From a virus, in UHGV virus genome UHGV-0113946: a stretch of 12,303 nucleotides of DNA; one strand, given 5' to 3'. Below are positions 1 to 6,300 of the stretch, piece after piece. The notes under the pieces are model-generated. The model had not been told where the DNA came from and searched no databases. It saw only the letters and a list, made by a program, of their open reading frames with translations. The first letter of the stretch is position 1. The number at the start of each line of letters is the position of its first letter. The position numbers and the translations under genes are program-made.

Positions 1-1329
1 TGGGGGGTGGATAAACCGTTGTATCGTGACCTGGTCAGCAGAACGCGTGCAGCCCTGAAGAAAAATCCGAAAAACGTGCTGTTGTCGGTGATCTGGATGC
101 AGGGGGAAAAAGATGTCAGTTCGGGGAGACATGCAGAGCACAATGCACTTTTTCTTGCCATGGTAAATAAATACCGTGCAGACCTGGCAGATATTGCAGA
201 CCAGTGTATTGGCGGGACAACGTCCGGCGTCCCGTGGATTTGCGGTGACACCACGTACGACTGGAAGGCGAAGTATGCAGTGCAGTATGAGGCGGTTTAC
301 GGAGGCTATAAAGGCAAGGCGGCGCAGAATATTCACTTTGTGCCGTTGATGACGGATGAGCATGGTGCGAATGTGCCGACAAACGAGCCGTCAGAAGATC
401 CGGATGTTGCGGATATTGGGTATTACGGAGCCGGTGGTCGAACGGACGCCAAAACCTGGACGACGGCTGACCGTAAAACGCATTTTGGATCATGGGCACG
501 TCGTGGGATTATTTCCGACCGTCTGGCAACGGCGATTCTTGTGCATGCCGGGAGAAACGCTGAATTCATTACCGGAAAACAGCCTGATACGGTGAAGCCC
601 ACCGGACCTTCCGGTGAAGGTACGGAGAGAGAGCCGGAAGCCCCGGTCAGTAACCGAACCCTGATGAGTCTGCTGGCGTCCGGTGAAGACCTGGCATCAC
701 AGGGCTGGCGCTATTATCACAAACCGGCGAGCGGAGACAGTGTTAATAAAAACATCGCTGAGGCTGTGGTCAGTGATGAGGGTGCCACCGGTGGTAAGGC
801 CCTGCAACTGAACAAACCGGAAAGCCACATCTGGTTTCTGGAGCATGATGCCGCCGGGAAGGGGGCAGAGTTGCTGAAGAAAGGCGGACGTGTGAGCGTG
901 CGGTTTAAGGTGCCGGGCGCACTGGTGCCGAATCAGTTTGCCCTGGGTATTTACTGGCAGTTGTCGTCCCTGCCGGAGGGAGTGACGCTGGCAGAGGAAG
1001 GCAACGACATGCTGATGTCCTTCTTCCTGCAGACGGATGCGACGAACCTGAACGCGATGTACCACAAGAAGCAGAATGCGAAGCTGGATACGTTCGGGGT
1101 CTTTGATAACGGATGGCACACACTGGCTTTTGAGTTTGCCGGAAACAACAGCATTCAGGTGACGCCGGTACTGGATGAGAAACGGGGTACACCGTTCACA
1201 CTGGTGAAATCTCCGGCATCAGGGGCGGCGGACAAACTGCAACTGACAGGCATATCAAAGGCGGCGACATATACGCTGCTGATTGACAGTGTGAAGGTGG
1301 AAGTGAACAACGCGGACATCGCGGCATGA
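1..1329 (+). CDS. Prophage sialate O-acetylesterase-like protein (NanS-p-like), 3' portion; gene is truncated at the 5' window edge
   Basis: Reading frame is open to position 1 (W-G upstream of the GTG at 7). Contains the WMQGEKD block typical of SASA/SGNH sialate O-acetylesterases (compare WxQGE(S)D), followed by a roughly 250-aa beta-rich C-terminal region consistent with a carbohydrate-binding domain. Position directly upstream of the lysis cassette matches where nanS-p homologues sit in EHEC lambdoid prophages. Recalled similarity, not computed. Confidence 0.6.
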   Translation, partial: WGVDKPLYRDLVSRTRAALKKNPKNVLLSVIWMQGEKDVSSGRHAEHNALFLAMVNKYRADLADIADQCIGGTTSGVPWICGDTTYDWKAKYAVQYEAVYGGYKGKAAQNIHFVPLMTDEHGANVPTNEPSEDPDVADIGYYGAGGRTDAKTWTTADRKTHFGSWARRGIISDRLATAILVHAGRNAEFITGKQPDTVKPTGPSGEGTEREPEAPVSNRTLMSLLASGEDLASQGWRYYHKPASGDSVNKNIAEAVVSDEGATGGKALQLNKPESHIWFLEHDAAGKGAELLKKGGRVSVRFKVPGALVPNQFALGIYWQLSSLPEGVTLAEEGNDMLMSFFLQTDATNLNAMYHKKQNAKLDTFGVFDNGWHTLAFEFAGNNSIQVTPVLDEKRGTPFTLVKSPASGAADKLQLTGISKAATYTLLIDSVKVEVNNADIAA

Positions 1330-1464: not shown

Positions 1465-1647
1465 ATGACATTTATTCATCAGGTGATGCTGTACTTCTGT
1501 ACGGCAGTCTGTGTTATGTATCTTCTTTCGGGTGGGTACAGGGCAGTGCGCGATTTCTGGCGCAGGCAGATTGATAAAAGGGCCGCTGAGAGAATCAGCG
1601 CCAGTCAGTCAGCCGGAAGCAAACCCGAAGATCCGCTCATTCCGTAG
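1465..1647 (+). CDS. Hypothetical small protein (60 aa) with a hydrophobic N-terminal segment and basic C-terminus
   Basis: ATG-initiated ORF in the gap between esterase and holin; predicted single transmembrane helix (FIHQVMLYFCTAVCVMYLLSGGY); weak ribosome-binding site; no recognised homology. Confidence 0.3.
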   Translation: MTFIHQVMLYFCTAVCVMYLLSGGYRAVRDFWRRQIDKRAAERISASQSAGSKPEDPLIP

Positions 1648-1684: not shown

Positions 1685-1930
1685 ATGTCAGAAATCACAT
1701 CCCTGGTCACTGCTGAGGCAGTGAAGGAAGTCCTGCGCTCTGAAGAAGTCCTGAGCGCACTGAAACAGAAACTCCGCCAGAACCTTGAGGCGCGTCTTGA
1801 TGCAGAAGTGGATGCCATTCTGGATGAGCTGCTGGGCGTACCAGCGGTTCCGGAGCCGGAAGGTATCGCGGGTGACGGGAGTGCTTCAGATGGCGGTGAC
1901 CCCACACCTGACAGCGACATGATGATGTAA
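1685..1930 (+). CDS. Hypothetical small acidic protein (81 aa)
   Basis: ATG at 1685 within ORF 1511..1930; helical, highly acidic C-terminus ([18 protein letters not shown]); same orientation as the late operon; function unknown. Confidence 0.45.
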
Positions 1931-2006: not shown

Positions 2007-2222
2007 ATGTACCAGATGGAAAAAATCACAACAGGTGTGTCATACACCACGTCAGCGGTGGGAACGGGCTACTGGTTCCTGCAGTTGCTGGACAGGGTTT
2101 CCCCGTCTCAGTGGGCGGCAATAGGCGTGCTGGGGAGTCTGCTGTTTGGGCTGCTGACATATCTGACGAACCTGTATTTCAAAATCAGAGAGGACCGGCG
2201 TAAGGCGGCGCGGGGAGAGTAA
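2007..2222 (+). CDS. S: Class II holin, phage 21 S-type pinholin, with dual-start motif (Met1 at 2007, Met4 at 2016)
   Basis: Translation [71 protein letters not shown] is near-identical in length and sequence pattern to the phage 21 S pinholin as recalled (two TMDs, [14 protein letters not shown]-terminal [13 protein letters not shown]). Sits upstream of a SAR endolysin, the canonical partner of pinholins. Confidence 0.85.
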
Positions 2223-2226
2223 AGCG

Positions 2227-3117
2227 ATGAAGAAAAAATACGAACTGGTTGTTAAAGGGATAAATAATTACCCGGATAAGATTACTGTTACTGTGGCACT
2301 GGAAGTTGGTGGGTATCCGTCACTGTTGTTGCCAGATGTGGCGATTAGTCTTGACCGTACTGAAGGTGCCACGCTGGAGTTTTACGAAGCTGAGGCGAAA
2401 AAGCAGGCGAAGCAGTTTTTCATGGATGTTGCTGCCGGGTTATGTGAAGGGAACGAACCGTTGCCGGAAAAGCGCCCCATAATTTTAGAGGCGCAAAATG
2501 TGTTGATAACCTACAAAGGAAAGCTACCGGGAAGAATTACTGATTCTCTGAAGATGCCGCCGTCAACACTGCGGTCAGAAAAAGATGATGTTGAATCACG
2601 TATTGAAAAACTGGAGAGCTACGTCGTTGAGCTGAATAAGAAATGGTCGATATTGGTGCCTTCTGGCGATGAAAAGCAGTTTGCTGCGTTTGACGATTAT
2701 TGTCGGAAAGTGATGAGCAGAAATCTCGCAGAGTGTTTCAGTATTCATAATGATAATTTCAGTGAGCTGGAATGGGAGTGTAACCGGCCATCCTTTGTTG
2801 TATCCGGTGATGGTGGGAAAATAACCATCTCAGAAAATGGGAAAGTAACACCTCCATCGCACCAGCACAGTGAGGAGCTCATTGAATTTGCCATTGATTA
2901 CCTGAAGAACAATAAAAAACAGGGGCTGATGCAGCGCATTGGTCGTTGCATGGGGTATCTGCAGGTAGCCGCTGAGATTGAAGCGCTGGCCAGTGGTGCT
3001 GATAAGGATGCAGTTGTGCGGGAGACCGTTCTTCGTGATTTCAATACTCCACCCTTTAAGACTGAGCCTGATAACTGGATCCAGCCGGGGCTGACTTATC
3101 TTAAAGTGCGTATTTAG
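2227..3117 (+). CDS. Hypothetical cytoplasmic protein (296 aa) inserted between holin and endolysin; no recognised domain
   Basis: Long ATG-initiated ORF; GGAGAG Shine-Dalgarno 7 nt upstream, start only 4 nt after the holin stop; markedly AT-richer than the flanking genes (first 60 nt about 30% GC); no signal peptide or transmembrane segment; predicted coiled-coil segment near residues 115-140. Confidence 0.75.
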   Translation: MKKKYELVVKGINNYPDKITVTVALEVGGYPSLLLPDVAISLDRTEGATLEFYEAEAKKQAKQFFMDVAAGLCEGNEPLPEKRPIILEAQNVLITYKGKLPGRITDSLKMPPSTLRSEKDDVESRIEKLESYVVELNKKWSILVPSGDEKQFAAFDDYCRKVMSRNLAECFSIHNDNFSELEWECNRPSFVVSGDGGKITISENGKVTPPSHQHSEELIEFAIDYLKNNKKQGLMQRIGRCMGYLQVAAEIEALASGADKDAVVRETVLRDFNTPPFKTEPDNWIQPGLTYLKVRI

Positions 3118-3153
3118 TGGGCCAGGGACAGCGGCTGAATATTTAATATATCC

Positions 3154-3687
3154 ATGAACACCAAAATCAAATACGGCCTGTCGGCTGCCGTTCTGGCGCT
3201 GATTGCCGCTGGTGCGCCTGCGCCTGACATTCTCGACCAGTTTCTGGATGAAAAAGAAGGTAACCACACCACGGCATACCGTGATGGTGCGGGTATCTGG
3301 ACCATCTGCCGTGGAGCCACCCGGGTGGATGGTAAGCCTGTTATTCCTGGCATGAAGCTGTCGAAGGGGAAATGCGACCGGGTTAACGCCATTGAGCGTG
3401 ATAAGGCGCTGGCATGGGTGGAGAAAAACATCAAAGTGCCACTGACTGAACCCCAGAAAGCGGGAATTGCGTCATTCTGTCCTTACAACATTGGCCCCGG
3501 TAAGTGTTTCCCGTCGACGTTTTATAAACGAATTAATGCAGGCGATCGCAGGGGAGCGTGTGAGGCGATTCGCTGGTGGATTAAGGACGGTGGCAGAGAC
3601 TGCCGTATTCGCTCAAATAATTGCTATGGTCAGATATCCCGTCGTGACCAGGAGAGCGCGCTGGCGTGCTGGGGAATCGACAGATAA
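3154..3687 (+). CDS. R: SAR (signal-anchor-release) endolysin, lysozyme family
   Basis: N-terminal Gly/Ala-rich weakly hydrophobic segment (GLSAAVLALIAAGAPA) typical of SAR domains, followed by a T4-lysozyme-like catalytic E...D...T arrangement (DEKEGNHTTAYRDGAGIWT); position after the pinholin. Confidence 0.85.
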   Translation: MNTKIKYGLSAAVLALIAAGAPAPDILDQFLDEKEGNHTTAYRDGAGIWTICRGATRVDGKPVIPGMKLSKGKCDRVNAIERDKALAWVEKNIKVPLTEPQKAGIASFCPYNIGPGKCFPSTFYKRINAGDRRGACEAIRWWIKDGGRDCRIRSNNCYGQISRRDQESALACWGIDR

Positions 3688-3777
3688 GCAGAATATTTTG
3701 CTGAAAAATGACGTTGACCAACGCGGACGGATAACACGAAATCCTGCGAACTGGCAAAACCTAAGTGAATAAAAGTA

Positions 3778-3820
3778 AAAACCCCGTTTGTTGGCTGCAA
3801 GCGGGGTTTTGTGTTTCTGA
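3778..3820 (+). terminator. Putative intrinsic terminator downstream of the endolysin gene
   Basis: Stem aaaaccccg (3778-3786) pairs with cggggtttt (3802-3810), with further pairing inside the loop, followed by a T-rich stretch gtgtttctg; located about 90 nt after the R stop codon. Confidence 0.5.
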
Positions 3821-3843
3821 CCTTGGATAAGGCAAGGGAGAAC

Positions 3844-4026
3844 ATGGAAAAGTATAAACGAATTCTGTTGAGGTTGACTATGAAAAACGGCCTTGAACTG
3901 AAAGCGCCTGTAACTGATGACATCAGCAGAGCACTGGCTTTTGCCATTAAGTGGGTGGCGGTCGGTGTTGCTGTGTCCCCGATGCTGTATGGGCTGGCAA
4001 AACTGGTCATTGCGTTGAAATCGTGA
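3844..4026 (+). CDS. Hypothetical small membrane protein (60 aa), C-terminal transmembrane helix
   Basis: ATG at 3844 with AGGGAG Shine-Dalgarno 7 nt upstream; hydrophobic C-terminal segment [22 protein letters not shown]; lies between endolysin and Rz. Confidence 0.5.
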
Positions 4027-4040
4027 AGGGAGGATTAAGC

Positions 4041-4172
4041 ATGTCAGACAAACTCATAACGCTGGCGAAGATCCTCTGTGTAATTGTCGGCATTTCATTT
4101 TCACTAATGCTGGTTGCTCTTTTTCTTTCCATGGCCTGGATGATGTTGTCTTCGTCGGGGCTGCTGGGGTGA
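4041..4172 (+). CDS. Hypothetical small membrane protein (43 aa)
   Basis: ATG at 4041 with GGGAGG Shine-Dalgarno 7 nt upstream; almost entirely one transmembrane segment ([26 protein letters not shown]); its stop overlaps the Rz start region. Confidence 0.45.
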
Positions 4173-4669
4173 ACATAAACCGAATGCTTTCCGCGTTTAT
4201 CGTTATTCTGCTGGTGGCCTGTGGAGCGCTGTGGATGGCAACAGACCATTACCGTGATAACGCGATTACCTACAAAGCGCAGCGCGATAACAAAGCCAGT
4301 GAACTGAAGCTGGCGAACGCAACTATTACTGATATGCAGGTGCGCCAGCGCGATGTTGCTGCGCTCGATGCAAAATACTCGAGGGAATTAGCCGATGCGA
4401 GAGCTGAAAATGAAACTCTTCGCGCTGACGTTGCCGCTGGTCGTAAGCGCCTGCGGATCAACGCCACCTGTCCAGGCTCCGTGCGTGAAGCCCCCACCAC
4501 CTCCGGCGTGGATAATGCAACCGGCCCCCGACTGGCAGACACCGCTGAACGGGATTATTTCATACTCAGAGAACGGTTGATGACAATGCAGAAGCAGCTG
4601 GAAGGGGCGCAGGAATATATCCGCACTCAGTGCACTAAGCTGGCTTTTTATTATCCGGAGGATACATGA
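4169..4669 (+). CDS. Rz: Rz inner-membrane spanin (i-spanin), lambda-like
   Basis: N-terminal transmembrane segment then [14 protein letters not shown]...[10 protein letters not shown]...VAAGRKRL...[10 protein letters not shown]...[13 protein letters not shown], closely matching lambda Rz as recalled. Start is either GTG 4169 or ATG 4184 (ambiguous). Confidence 0.85.
4395..4580 (+). CDS. Rz1: Rz1 outer-membrane lipoprotein spanin (o-spanin), embedded out of frame within Rz
   Basis: [20 protein letters not shown] lipoprotein signal with lipobox Cys, then proline-rich [26 protein letters not shown], closely matching lambda Rz1 as recalled; entirely inside the Rz reading frame in a different frame. 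Confidence 0.8.
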
Positions 4670-4890
4670 AGAAATTACGGGTAACCGTAGAACCTTTTCA
4701 GGGAACAATTCCGTTCCGTATTTTGCAGCGTGGTCGTGTTCTTGTTGAAGGTTCGTTCAGTGGTAAATGTACGCAATTACACTCCCGGACCTTTCAGGTG
4801 AATGCCACGAATGAAGAGCTAACCGTGGAGTGTACGATGAATGCCGCTAAATGCCGCATGGTATCCGCTGCATTACAGCCAGTGTGTTGA
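4666..4890 (+). CDS. Hypothetical protein (74 aa) translationally coupled to Rz
   Basis: ATG overlaps the Rz stop codon (ATGA at 4666-4669); no recognisable domain; four Cys residues. Confidence 0.4.
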
Positions 4891-5228
4891 GCGACCTTAT
4901 TATCCATGCGCGGTATTGTCGCCGTATTCCTGCATTAACAGAGACCGCAGCCCGACAGGGAGACTCCTCTGCGCGAGTGTGCGGGGATAATCAAAAACGA
5001 TACACACCGGGGTTTACCGCGTTAACGGAGCGCGGCGTTGTCCCCTCATGGTCGCTGGTCCGGTGCGATGGTGGAAGAAACCGGACGATGTGTTACCTCG
5101 CATGACCTGTTATGTCATGTGTCTGATTTGTGATTTAAGTCGGATAATTGTCGTTGCCATTAAGCAGAGGATTGATGGCCGACAGGGTGGCATTGTTAGA
5201 ATAAGACTTATTCTTATCTGTGCCGGGA

Positions 5229-5561
5229 ATGAAAATGAAAAGAAATCTTCCGTTAATTATTTTGTTGTCTTCTCTGGTTATGGGCTGTACGCAACATAAA
5301 ACAGATATGCCCCGACAGTTGGTTAAGGCATTACCACAATATCCGGCCTATGCAGCGGCAAATTATATAAAGGGACGGGTTGATGTGAAGTTTGATATTG
5401 GTGCTGATGGTACTGTCACCCGAATTGAGTTTATCCGTTCAGAGCCGCACCATCTGTTTGATGAGCAGGTTGTAAAGGCGATGGCAAAATGGCGATTTGA
5501 GAAGGACAGGCCGCGTAAAGGCGTGAAGAAATCGTTTATCTTTAGTCCTTCTGCACCCTGA
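5229..5561 (+). CDS. Lipoprotein consisting of a TonB C-terminal domain (TonB_C-like), probable moron
   Basis: Signal peptide MKMKRNLPLIILLSSLVMG followed by Cys (lipobox-like LVMGC; residue +2 is Thr, not Asp). The mature region LPQYPAYAAANYIKGRVDVKFDIGADGTVTRIEFIRSEPHHLFDEQVVKAMAKWRFEKDRP aligns by eye with the E. coli TonB C-terminal domain as recalled ([61 protein letters not shown]). AT-rich relative to the flanks. Alternative starts at GTG 5220 or ATG 5235. Confidence 0.8.
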   Translation: MKMKRNLPLIILLSSLVMGCTQHKTDMPRQLVKALPQYPAYAAANYIKGRVDVKFDIGADGTVTRIEFIRSEPHHLFDEQVVKAMAKWRFEKDRPRKGVKKSFIFSPSAP

Positions 5562-5692: not shown

Positions 5693-5893
5693 TCATTTCT
5701 CGTTATTTGTCATGCTGGTCGGGCGCAGATGCGTTGCATCTGTTGCCAGCCTTCTCCTGCAGGCTTCAATAACCCACGCTGAAAAGTTACCGGACCCTTT
5801 ATGCTCAAGGGCTATGTTGATTTGTTCAATTATGTGATTGGGGAAACGGATATTGCGGGTTGTGGTTCTGCGGGTCCGGTTTTTCGATGACAT
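5693..5893 (-). CDS. Small ribbon-helix-helix-like protein (66 aa), resembles DUF3950 / YlcI-type prophage proteins
   Basis: Minus-strand ORF; preferred start is the internal Met (MSSKNRTRRTTTRNIRFPNHIIEQINIALEHKGSGNFSAWVIEACRRRL) with AAGGA Shine-Dalgarno 7 nt upstream. The beta-strand / helix / turn / helix pattern is typical of Arc/CopG-type RHH folds. Family assignment is from memory and tentative. Confidence 0.55.
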   Translation of the reverse strand: MSSKNRTRRTTTRNIRFPNHIIEQINIALEHKGSGNFSAWVIEACRRRLATDATHLRPTSMTNNEK

Positions 5894-5934: not shown

Positions 5935-6300
5935 ATGGCTGAGCTTCGTACACTCCAGAGCAGAATCAAAACACTGAATACCCGACGGGTGAATATTCTG
6001 AAGGGGGAACAGCGTCGTGTCAGTGGCAGTGCACGTGTTTCCCTCAAGCGTCATATCTGGCTCAGGGATGCCGGGCAGTGCTGTCTCTGTGGTCGTGTGG
6101 TTGACCTCTGTGACAGTGAACTCGATCACCGAATTGCACTTCAGTTCGGTGGTGGTAATGAGGAGACGAATCTCTGGACGCTCTGTACCGAATGCCATCG
6201 ACAAAAGTCTGCTCGTGAAGCGGCGGGTGGTATGCCGGACCCGACGCTGCCGGAGGTGTCCGGAGGTAGTGGCAGAGCGGACGACATCATCGGACTGTAA
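5935..6300 (+). CDS. HNH endonuclease (packaging-associated, HK97 gp74-like)
   Basis: HNH motif CCLCGRVVD...DHRIALQFGGGNEETNLWTLCTECHRQKS with two Cys pairs and the His-Asn-His arrangement; sits immediately upstream of the terminase genes, as in HK97-type packaging modules. Confidence 0.85.
   Translation: MAELRTLQSRIKTLNTRRVNILKGEQRRVSGSARVSLKRHIWLRDAGQCCLCGRVVDLCDSELDHRIALQFGGGNEETNLWTLCTECHRQKSAREAAGGMPDPTLPEVSGGSGRADDIIGL

Follow-up and report, generated by a model that had tools for sequence, protein, structure and literature searches.

The stretch of DNA analysed here, which we call the window, is the 12,303-bp UHGV virus genome UHGV-0113946. An exact-protein look-up identified it as a complete metagenome contig (ENA ERZ1742496 NODE_2022; coverage 3.39, ~3.4x). 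The window begins inside a nanS-p-type sialate O-acetylesterase gene, of which it holds the 3' 442 codons and the stop (1..1329, + strand). NanS-p proteins are prophage-borne 9-O-acetyl-N-acetylneuraminate (sialate) O-acetylesterases of lambdoid E. coli phages, composed of a DUF1737 domain, a SASA/SGNH catalytic domain and a lectin-like domain. Frame 1 is open from the first base to a TGA at 1327-1329 and has no start codon in the window; frames 2 and 3 of the same strand contain stops throughout the esterase region. The window as a whole is best read as the late region of a long-tailed, HK97-head lambdoid Escherichia prophage. A preliminary description, made from these letters alone, had taken the first gene for the C-terminal two-thirds of a prophage esterase and had suggested that Q-regulated cargo, possibly the Shiga toxin (Stx) genes stx, lies just upstream. 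We are highly confident of a reading that combines identity and setting: the 3' two-thirds of nanS-p, truncated where the contig ends and lying within the late operon of a non-Stx lambdoid prophage.

Pfam SASA (PF03629) matched residues 1-63 of the fragment at profile positions 98-157 of 226, above the curated cut-off (E 2.4e-6). Because this match begins at profile position 98, the window holds just the back half of the catalytic domain. That half comprises residues 1-180 (1..540, + strand), which align with chain residues 157-331 of E. coli NanS/YjhS in PDB 3pt5 (E 7e-48). A lectin-like jelly-roll domain, a putative carbohydrate-binding module, forms the C-terminus (residues 250-437; 748..1311, + strand). 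It aligned with the crystallised C-terminal domain of a NanS-p protein (PDB 6yp6, E 1.4e-62), and Pfam DUF6645 (PF20350) matched residues 292-405 (E 5.4e-46). A large protein collection yielded 1510 homologues, named SASA family esterase, DUF1737, DUF6645 or sialate O-acetylesterase. The full-length homologues are 654-660 residues long and contain DUF1737, SASA and DUF6645, with DUF1737 present in all of them. In loci whose 5' allele is identical to that of the window, the coding sequence starts 639 nt ahead of the equivalent of window base 1. The fragment therefore represents ~442 of 655 residues (67%), as the preliminary description had estimated. The off-contig ~639 nt (~213 codons) are predicted from these homologues to encode DUF1737 together with the front half of SASA, where the catalytic Ser lies.

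The residues expected of such an enzyme can be followed in an alignment (A1) of the fragment with 933W L0105, two PhiR12-type proteins, the Stx2_EH2201 protein and P0005, using published definitions of the SGNH blocks (PMC10462455). Block III, WMQGEKD (residues 32-38, nt 94-114), is conserved across the alignment. In block IV, DRKTH (residues 157-161), the His at the catalytic position, His161 (nt 481-483), is invariant; the block reads RKTH in the window and RSSH or RASH in NanS and most NanS-p. Four aromatic residues of the C-terminal domain have been proposed to bind sugar: Y510, Y515, Y540 and F611 (PMC10462455). Y515 is kept in the window, Y510 and Y540 are replaced by Phe and F611 is deleted, so that three of the four positions stay aromatic at this site.

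Among the closest known systems are L0105/z1466 of the Stx2a phage 933W and vb_24B_21 (gp84) of phi24B. They share the family, the domain order and the conservation of blocks III and IV with the window, and in both phages nanS-p likewise lies ahead of DUF826-type small genes and holin S. However, their NanS-p proteins are only 57-60% identical to the fragment in amino acids, and nucleotide identity is 72% over nt 1-553, the only part of nt 1-1400 that 933W matches. Block IV is RASH/RSSH in these phages instead of RKTH. The linker differs, that of the window carrying an 11-residue insertion (YYHKP...NKNIAEA), and the sugar-binding site differs by the loss of F611 and the Phe at positions 510 and 540. 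The surroundings differ as well: in 933W and phi24B stx2 lies directly upstream and the head is that of a Sepvirinae podovirus, whereas the head module here is HK97-like and alleles close to this one occur without stx. The morphogenesis module of the window differs from the Sepvirinae set of 933W, which is absent from the 20 phage records covering at least 80% of the window. The arrangement first described as 933W-type, with the esterase upstream of S-R-Rz, is indeed found, with DUF1378, DUF826 and DUF1327 genes interspersed, but the label is inexact for a prophage with this head. The chromosomal NanS (YjhS; 3pt5) has a homologous catalytic domain with the same non-canonical SGNH blocks (PMC10462455); unlike the window gene, it lacks DUF1737 and the C-terminal lectin-like domain and is not phage-borne.

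All tested NanS-p paralogues of EDL933 and O104:H4, from stx and non-stx prophages alike, are active esterases that permit growth on 5-N-acetyl-9-O-acetylneuraminic acid (Neu5,9Ac2), and the enzymes de-O-acetylate mucin glycans (PMC8065619, PMC10462455). Treatment with mitomycin C or norfloxacin induces nanS-p along with stx and the late genes, as would be expected if transcription depends on Q (PMC8065619, PMC10462455). By analogy with this family, the window gene would be transcribed from pR' under Q antitermination upon prophage induction. Its SGNH-type Ser/His site would strip 9-O-acetyl groups from Neu5,9Ac2 and mucin glycans, presumably with the jelly-roll domain assisting glycan binding, and the released N-acetylneuraminic acid (Neu5Ac) could then be used by E. 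coli. For the window gene, both the esterase activity and the dependence on Q are thus expected from its relatives.

A different role for the same enzyme has been raised by phi24B gp84, a member of the family that is reported to be an abundant virion protein: its DUF1737 is described as a hexamer seated on a T=9 capsid at the central hexons, and the protein as self-processed after release (2026 preprint, 10.64898/2026.04.10.717836). NanS-p would then be mainly a virion component, with DUF1737 decorating the capsid and the esterase and lectin domains displayed and later cleaved off, and it would act in the interaction of the phage with mucus or with the cell surface, not in feeding the lysogen. 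Such a role does not conflict with the enzymatic assignment, and expression together with the late, structural genes fits it. We nevertheless consider it unlikely as the main role here, if the strongest of the alternatives. The capsid result comes from a Sepvirinae podovirus with a different capsid, whereas the head of the window is encoded by an HK97-like protease-capsid fusion, and DUF1737 lies outside the window. The same DUF1737 sequence occurs with lambda-type heads (locus L001) and HK97-type heads (L003), and because it accompanies two head types it fits poorly with a specific docking to one capsid. In addition, the window has TGPSG where the preprint places its proposed processing site, the 'SSP' motif of the linker.

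One type of DUF1737, MTFKHYD...AITPYTLMQAIAAEGDVTTPV, accompanies lambda-type heads in PhiR12_1 as well as HK97-type heads in Stx2_EH2201, and the 933W type is also found in a P22-portal phage (P0005); the loci compared were L001 8362-8530, L092 4362-4530 and L003 7362-7530 against L103 3362-3540 and P0005. Since one type spans lambda and HK97 heads and the other reaches a P22-portal phage, DUF1737 alleles do not track head type, a point relevant to the proposed capsid-binding function of this domain. If the anchoring seen in phi24B applies more widely, the association of DUF1737 with at least two unrelated head modules would suggest that NanS-p is a promiscuous, capsid-displayed mucin esterase that decorates HK97-type and lambda-type heads too, and no simple lysogen 'moron'. 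We regard this extension as speculative and improbable. In locus L005 a frameshift separates DUF1737 (58 residues, 3132-3308) from the rest of the esterase (597 residues, 3305-5098); if DUF1737 does anchor the protein to the capsid, the enzyme would here be detached from its anchor.

We cut the window into 100-nt segments and compared each with the fetched loci. The first four segments (nt 1-400, + strand) form a rare 5' allele: among the first 91 loci they were 100% identical to phage PhiR12_1 alone, and the best matches of later segments were other, commoner alleles. By megablast, only 36 of the 5426 complete E. coli genomes had a match to nt 1-400, and in 19 of these the identity was 99% or more (100% in 12 and 99.3-99.8% in seven); identity in the PhiR12 phages was 99.8-100%. 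The SASA C-terminal half of the fragment is identical to that of the 660-residue, WP_062857750-type proteins of PhiR12_1 to PhiR12_5 and of prophages in E. coli 2015C-3121, NCTC9112, G1/2 and further strains, and the gene order downstream is the same in these loci. From about nt 400, however, the PhiR12-type esterase diverges in its linker and C-terminal domain, which leaves ~60% amino acid identity over the whole fragment. The converse holds for two alleles of non-Stx prophages, the P0005 type (655 residues; 87% identical over the whole fragment) and P0001 of locus L005 (93%), whose linker and C-terminal domain are as in the window but whose SASA half differs. A putative recombination junction at ~380-420 inside the esterase gene joins a PhiR12-type SASA half to a P0005-type linker and C-terminal domain.

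None of the 5426 complete E. coli genomes spans this junction at more than 90.5% identity, and for this reason the contig must be a new recombinant or else, as 3.4x coverage allows, a chimera of the assembly. In the latter case the first 400 nt would be foreign to the rest, drawn from a second paralogous nanS-p copy in the sample, and nothing could be concluded from the 5' allele. The low coverage and the missing genomic match speak for this. So do the number of nanS-p-like copies in an E. coli genome (median 2, up to 7) and the frequency with which assemblies break in the gene, which is reflected in hundreds of clusters of partial N-terminal fragments. On the other hand, the reading frame is unbroken across the junction, and NanS-p alleles are known domain mosaics (PMC10462455). 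Locus L005 (3770-6075), an independent contig from a separate metagenome, also joins a P0005-type linker and C-terminal domain to a PhiR12-like SASA half, in a combination similar but not identical to that of the window. The combination in L005 favours a real mosaic, and we judge a chimera to be improbable. Even if it were one, the other parent alleles (at least 86% identity) were never linked to stx among the loci tabulated either.

The window is the entire contig and has no readable upstream sequence, so what lies upstream was judged from relatives. We fetched 80 IMG/VR loci and scored stx in every available locus whose upstream sequence reached 3.3 kb or more, 79 in total; detection was by tblastn with Stx2A and Stx2B, which also finds Stx1. 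The same search found no stx within the window itself. The loci read that carry the 5' allele of the window (at least 99% identity over nt 1-400) were PhiR12_1 and 11 of the 19 complete genomes, and stx was absent from all 12, as read directly and confirmed by tblastn. It was likewise absent from all 40 loci whose esterase is at least 86% identical in amino acids to the fragment and whose upstream sequence extends at least 3.3 kb. In all, stx was present in 10 of the 79 informative loci, and all ten have esterase alleles at most 85.6% identical to the fragment.

In most of the relatives that show enough upstream sequence, a Q-family antiterminator lies 0.8-5.4 kb upstream of the esterase. In PhiR12_1, Q is followed directly by the esterase gene. 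Three of the 11 identical-allele genomes (2015C-3121, NCTC9112 and S1-KEN-03-A) have Q, with or without a small hypothetical gene, and then the esterase. Five contain a gene in the Q or DUF1133 position, a methyltransferase gene, tRNA Ile/Arg/Arg and a gene-free stretch of ~1 kb; in two more, the tRNAs are followed by a TerB-family protein and DUF3927 (unrelated to the DUF3950 protein of the window), and one has a TolA-like gene upstream. The locus of the closest protein, L005 (P0001, 93%), contains a methylase, tRNA Met(CAT)/Arg/Arg and 977 bp with no open reading frame (ORF) of note before DUF1737 and the esterase, and has no stx. P0005-type loci (87%) have Q directly ahead of the esterase in a P22-portal phage. 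The complete genomes that best match the whole window (95% identity over 93-98% of its length) have in this slot a gene for a type I restriction-modification (R-M) M subunit, a TolA-like protein, a helix-turn-helix (HTH) protein or OmpC, again with no stx. In the sample of the window, the N-terminal 233 residues of the identical-allele esterase retrieved no contig that would continue it upstream; the ENA fragments P0197 and P0205 are from other samples.

From these loci, the window would most likely be preceded by the missing ~639 nt. Beyond these, either Q would lie within ~1 kb, or a methyltransferase gene, the tRNA trio Ile/Arg/Arg and small cargo other than toxin would intervene, with Q 3-5 kb away; in neither case is stx expected. 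As to the Q-regulated cargo that had been proposed, the part about Q is supported by most of the relatives, and the part about stx finds no match among the 12 identical-allele and 40 close-allele loci.

The possibility that the contig is the late region of a Stx-converting phage, with stxAB immediately upstream of the truncated nanS-p, still has to be weighed. Phages of the Stx1, Stx2a, Stx2c and Stx2d types share a conserved order, Q, (tRNAs), stxAB, nanS-p, S (PMC10462455), and it is seen in L003 and 933W. Several observations count against the reading that we favour. Stx1a-, Stx2a- and Stx2c-converting phages gave the best whole-window matches in a phage collection (coverage 82%, identity 91-94%), so the same late and head module travels with stx in some phages, and 10 of the 79 related loci do carry the toxin genes. 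In complete genomes rich in E. coli that make Shiga toxin (STEC), ~2480 nanS-p-like places in 999 genomes compare with ~1100 stx places (743 for stx2 and 360 for stx1). The upstream region of the window cannot be read. Its exact mosaic occurs in no complete E. coli genome, and reasoning from its parents assumes no further recombination just upstream. Finally, block I with the catalytic Ser, block II and DUF1737 are all off the contig, and that the enzyme is intact and active is a prediction.

The naive prior for stx is therefore non-negligible, and the suggestion of the preliminary description was a reasonable one. What lowered our estimate to a very small value is the allele-specific evidence together with the metagenome source. 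The nanS-p alleles of Stx phages are ~72% identical to nt 1-553 of the window, and the esterases of the stx-linked loci examined fall at or below the 85.6% given above; neither the window's own 5' allele nor the close alleles were accompanied by stx. In L005, the closest relative, the slot after the tRNAs is empty, and the phage collection is biased towards deposited Stx phages. On this comparison of loci, stx immediately upstream of the window appears very improbable. The data favour the original caveat, namely that paralogues of NanS-p are found in non-Stx prophages as well. That the ORF is a tail fibre or an unrelated hydrolase and no sialate esterase has practically no chance of being right: Pfam, PDB and homologue searches all give NanS/NanS-p and leave no ambiguity about the family, nothing was found in favour of the idea, and the gene adjoins the lysis cassette, outside the tail module.

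Between Q or the tRNAs and nanS-p, the non-Stx relatives have a slot for cargo that is the same insertion hotspot used by stx in Stx phages. The genes seen in it encode a type I R-M M subunit, a TolA-like protein, an OmpC porin, a TerB-family protein with DUF3927, and an HTH protein (L009 4173-5108; L010 2601-3029; L011 2759-3841 and 5111-5539; L094 3275-3867; L100 2775-3367). Three further loci are deletion derivatives with a 206-residue nanS-p remnant of DUF1737 and the start of SASA (L104 6001-6981, L105 78-1058 and L106 316-1296). The remnant runs straight into head-closure and tail genes, and the block of lysis, terminase, capsid and portal genes is gone.

Downstream of the esterase, the genes of the window are on the + strand with one exception. 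A DUF1378 small protein of 60 residues (1465..1647; PF07125, E 2.1e-36), found at the same place in relatives, is followed by a DUF826 protein of 81 residues (1685..1930; PF05696). The lysis cassette begins with holin S, a 71-residue protein of the P21 holin family (Phage_holin_2_1; 2007..2222; PF04971, E 1.9e-32). Between holin and endolysin lies a DUF1327/YdfR-family protein of 296 residues (2227..3117; PF07041 on residues 1-100). Endolysin R (177 residues; 3154..3687; Phage_lysozyme PF00959, E 6e-24), two small ORFs called at 3880-4026 and 4041-4172, and the Rz spanin subunit (144 residues; 4235..4669; Phage_lysis PF03245, E 3e-49) come next.

The 296-residue DUF1327/YdfR ORF is intact in the window; in several complete E. 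coli genomes (L009, L011) the annotation of this region gives a truncated YdfR/DUF1327 pseudogene and a separate hypothetical gene. A single tblastn match over at least 280 of the 296 residues was found in 19 of 72 related loci. We considered whether this protein is unique to the window. Its exact sequence occurs on this contig only, yet full-length forms 90-94% identical are present in other IMG/VR loci, and the idea was dropped.

Pfam further identified, between Rz and the terminase, a TonB_C-domain protein of 108 residues (5235-5561), a DUF3950/YlcI-like protein on the - strand (5693-5893) and an HNH endonuclease (5935-6300), a trio also present in relatives (L009-L011). An HNH gene beside TerS is typical of HK97-like cos packaging. 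The head module, from Pfam and gene calls, consists of TerS (6591-7154), TerL (7151-8875), a prohead protease-major capsid fusion (8872-10809) and a portal gene cut by the contig end (11021 to 12303). In the long-tailed L003 (Stx2_EH2201) and L009-L011 this HK97-like module precedes a tape-measure tail module. TerL has a 4-nt deletion near nt 8785 (8780-8875), where relatives read AAAAAGAAAGAATATG and the window reads AAAAAGAATATG. It shifts the last codons, so that the ORF is 574 residues long, against 553 in relatives, and overlaps the capsid start at 8872. The deletion could be a real variant or an error of an assembly at 3.4x coverage.

Right after the esterase stops TGA TAA, a G+C-rich hairpin, GCCGCCAGC...GCTGGCGG, occupies 1333-1360, with a run of A before it on the + strand. 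It scores as an intrinsic terminator on the minus strand only (1351-1339, tail CTTTTTTTAT), pointing into the esterase gene. A promoter scan of nt 1-2300 gave no sigma-70-like site, which is consistent with read-through late transcription. An Rfam scan of the window gave no family at its gathering score.

It is already documented that NanS-p has three domains, that its gene lies between Q, whether or not stx is present, and the lysis genes, and that many non-Stx prophages carry it. The window is an ordinary prophage fragment with a known gene family in a known arrangement, and nothing in it is new except a mosaic allele, itself trivial, on a contig of low coverage. In a protein search, partial N-terminal nanS-p fragments at contig ends formed very many clusters, of which some exceeded 1000 members, which shows that short-read assemblies routinely break in this multi-copy gene; a nanS-p gene truncated where a contig ends is therefore to be expected and says little by itself. 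More can be learned from the allele: its first 400 nt belong to a lineage that was never next to stx in the loci examined. In screening, a nanS-p fragment at a contig edge is a poor marker of stx, since there are more copies of nanS-p than stx loci and assembly breaks within the gene are common.

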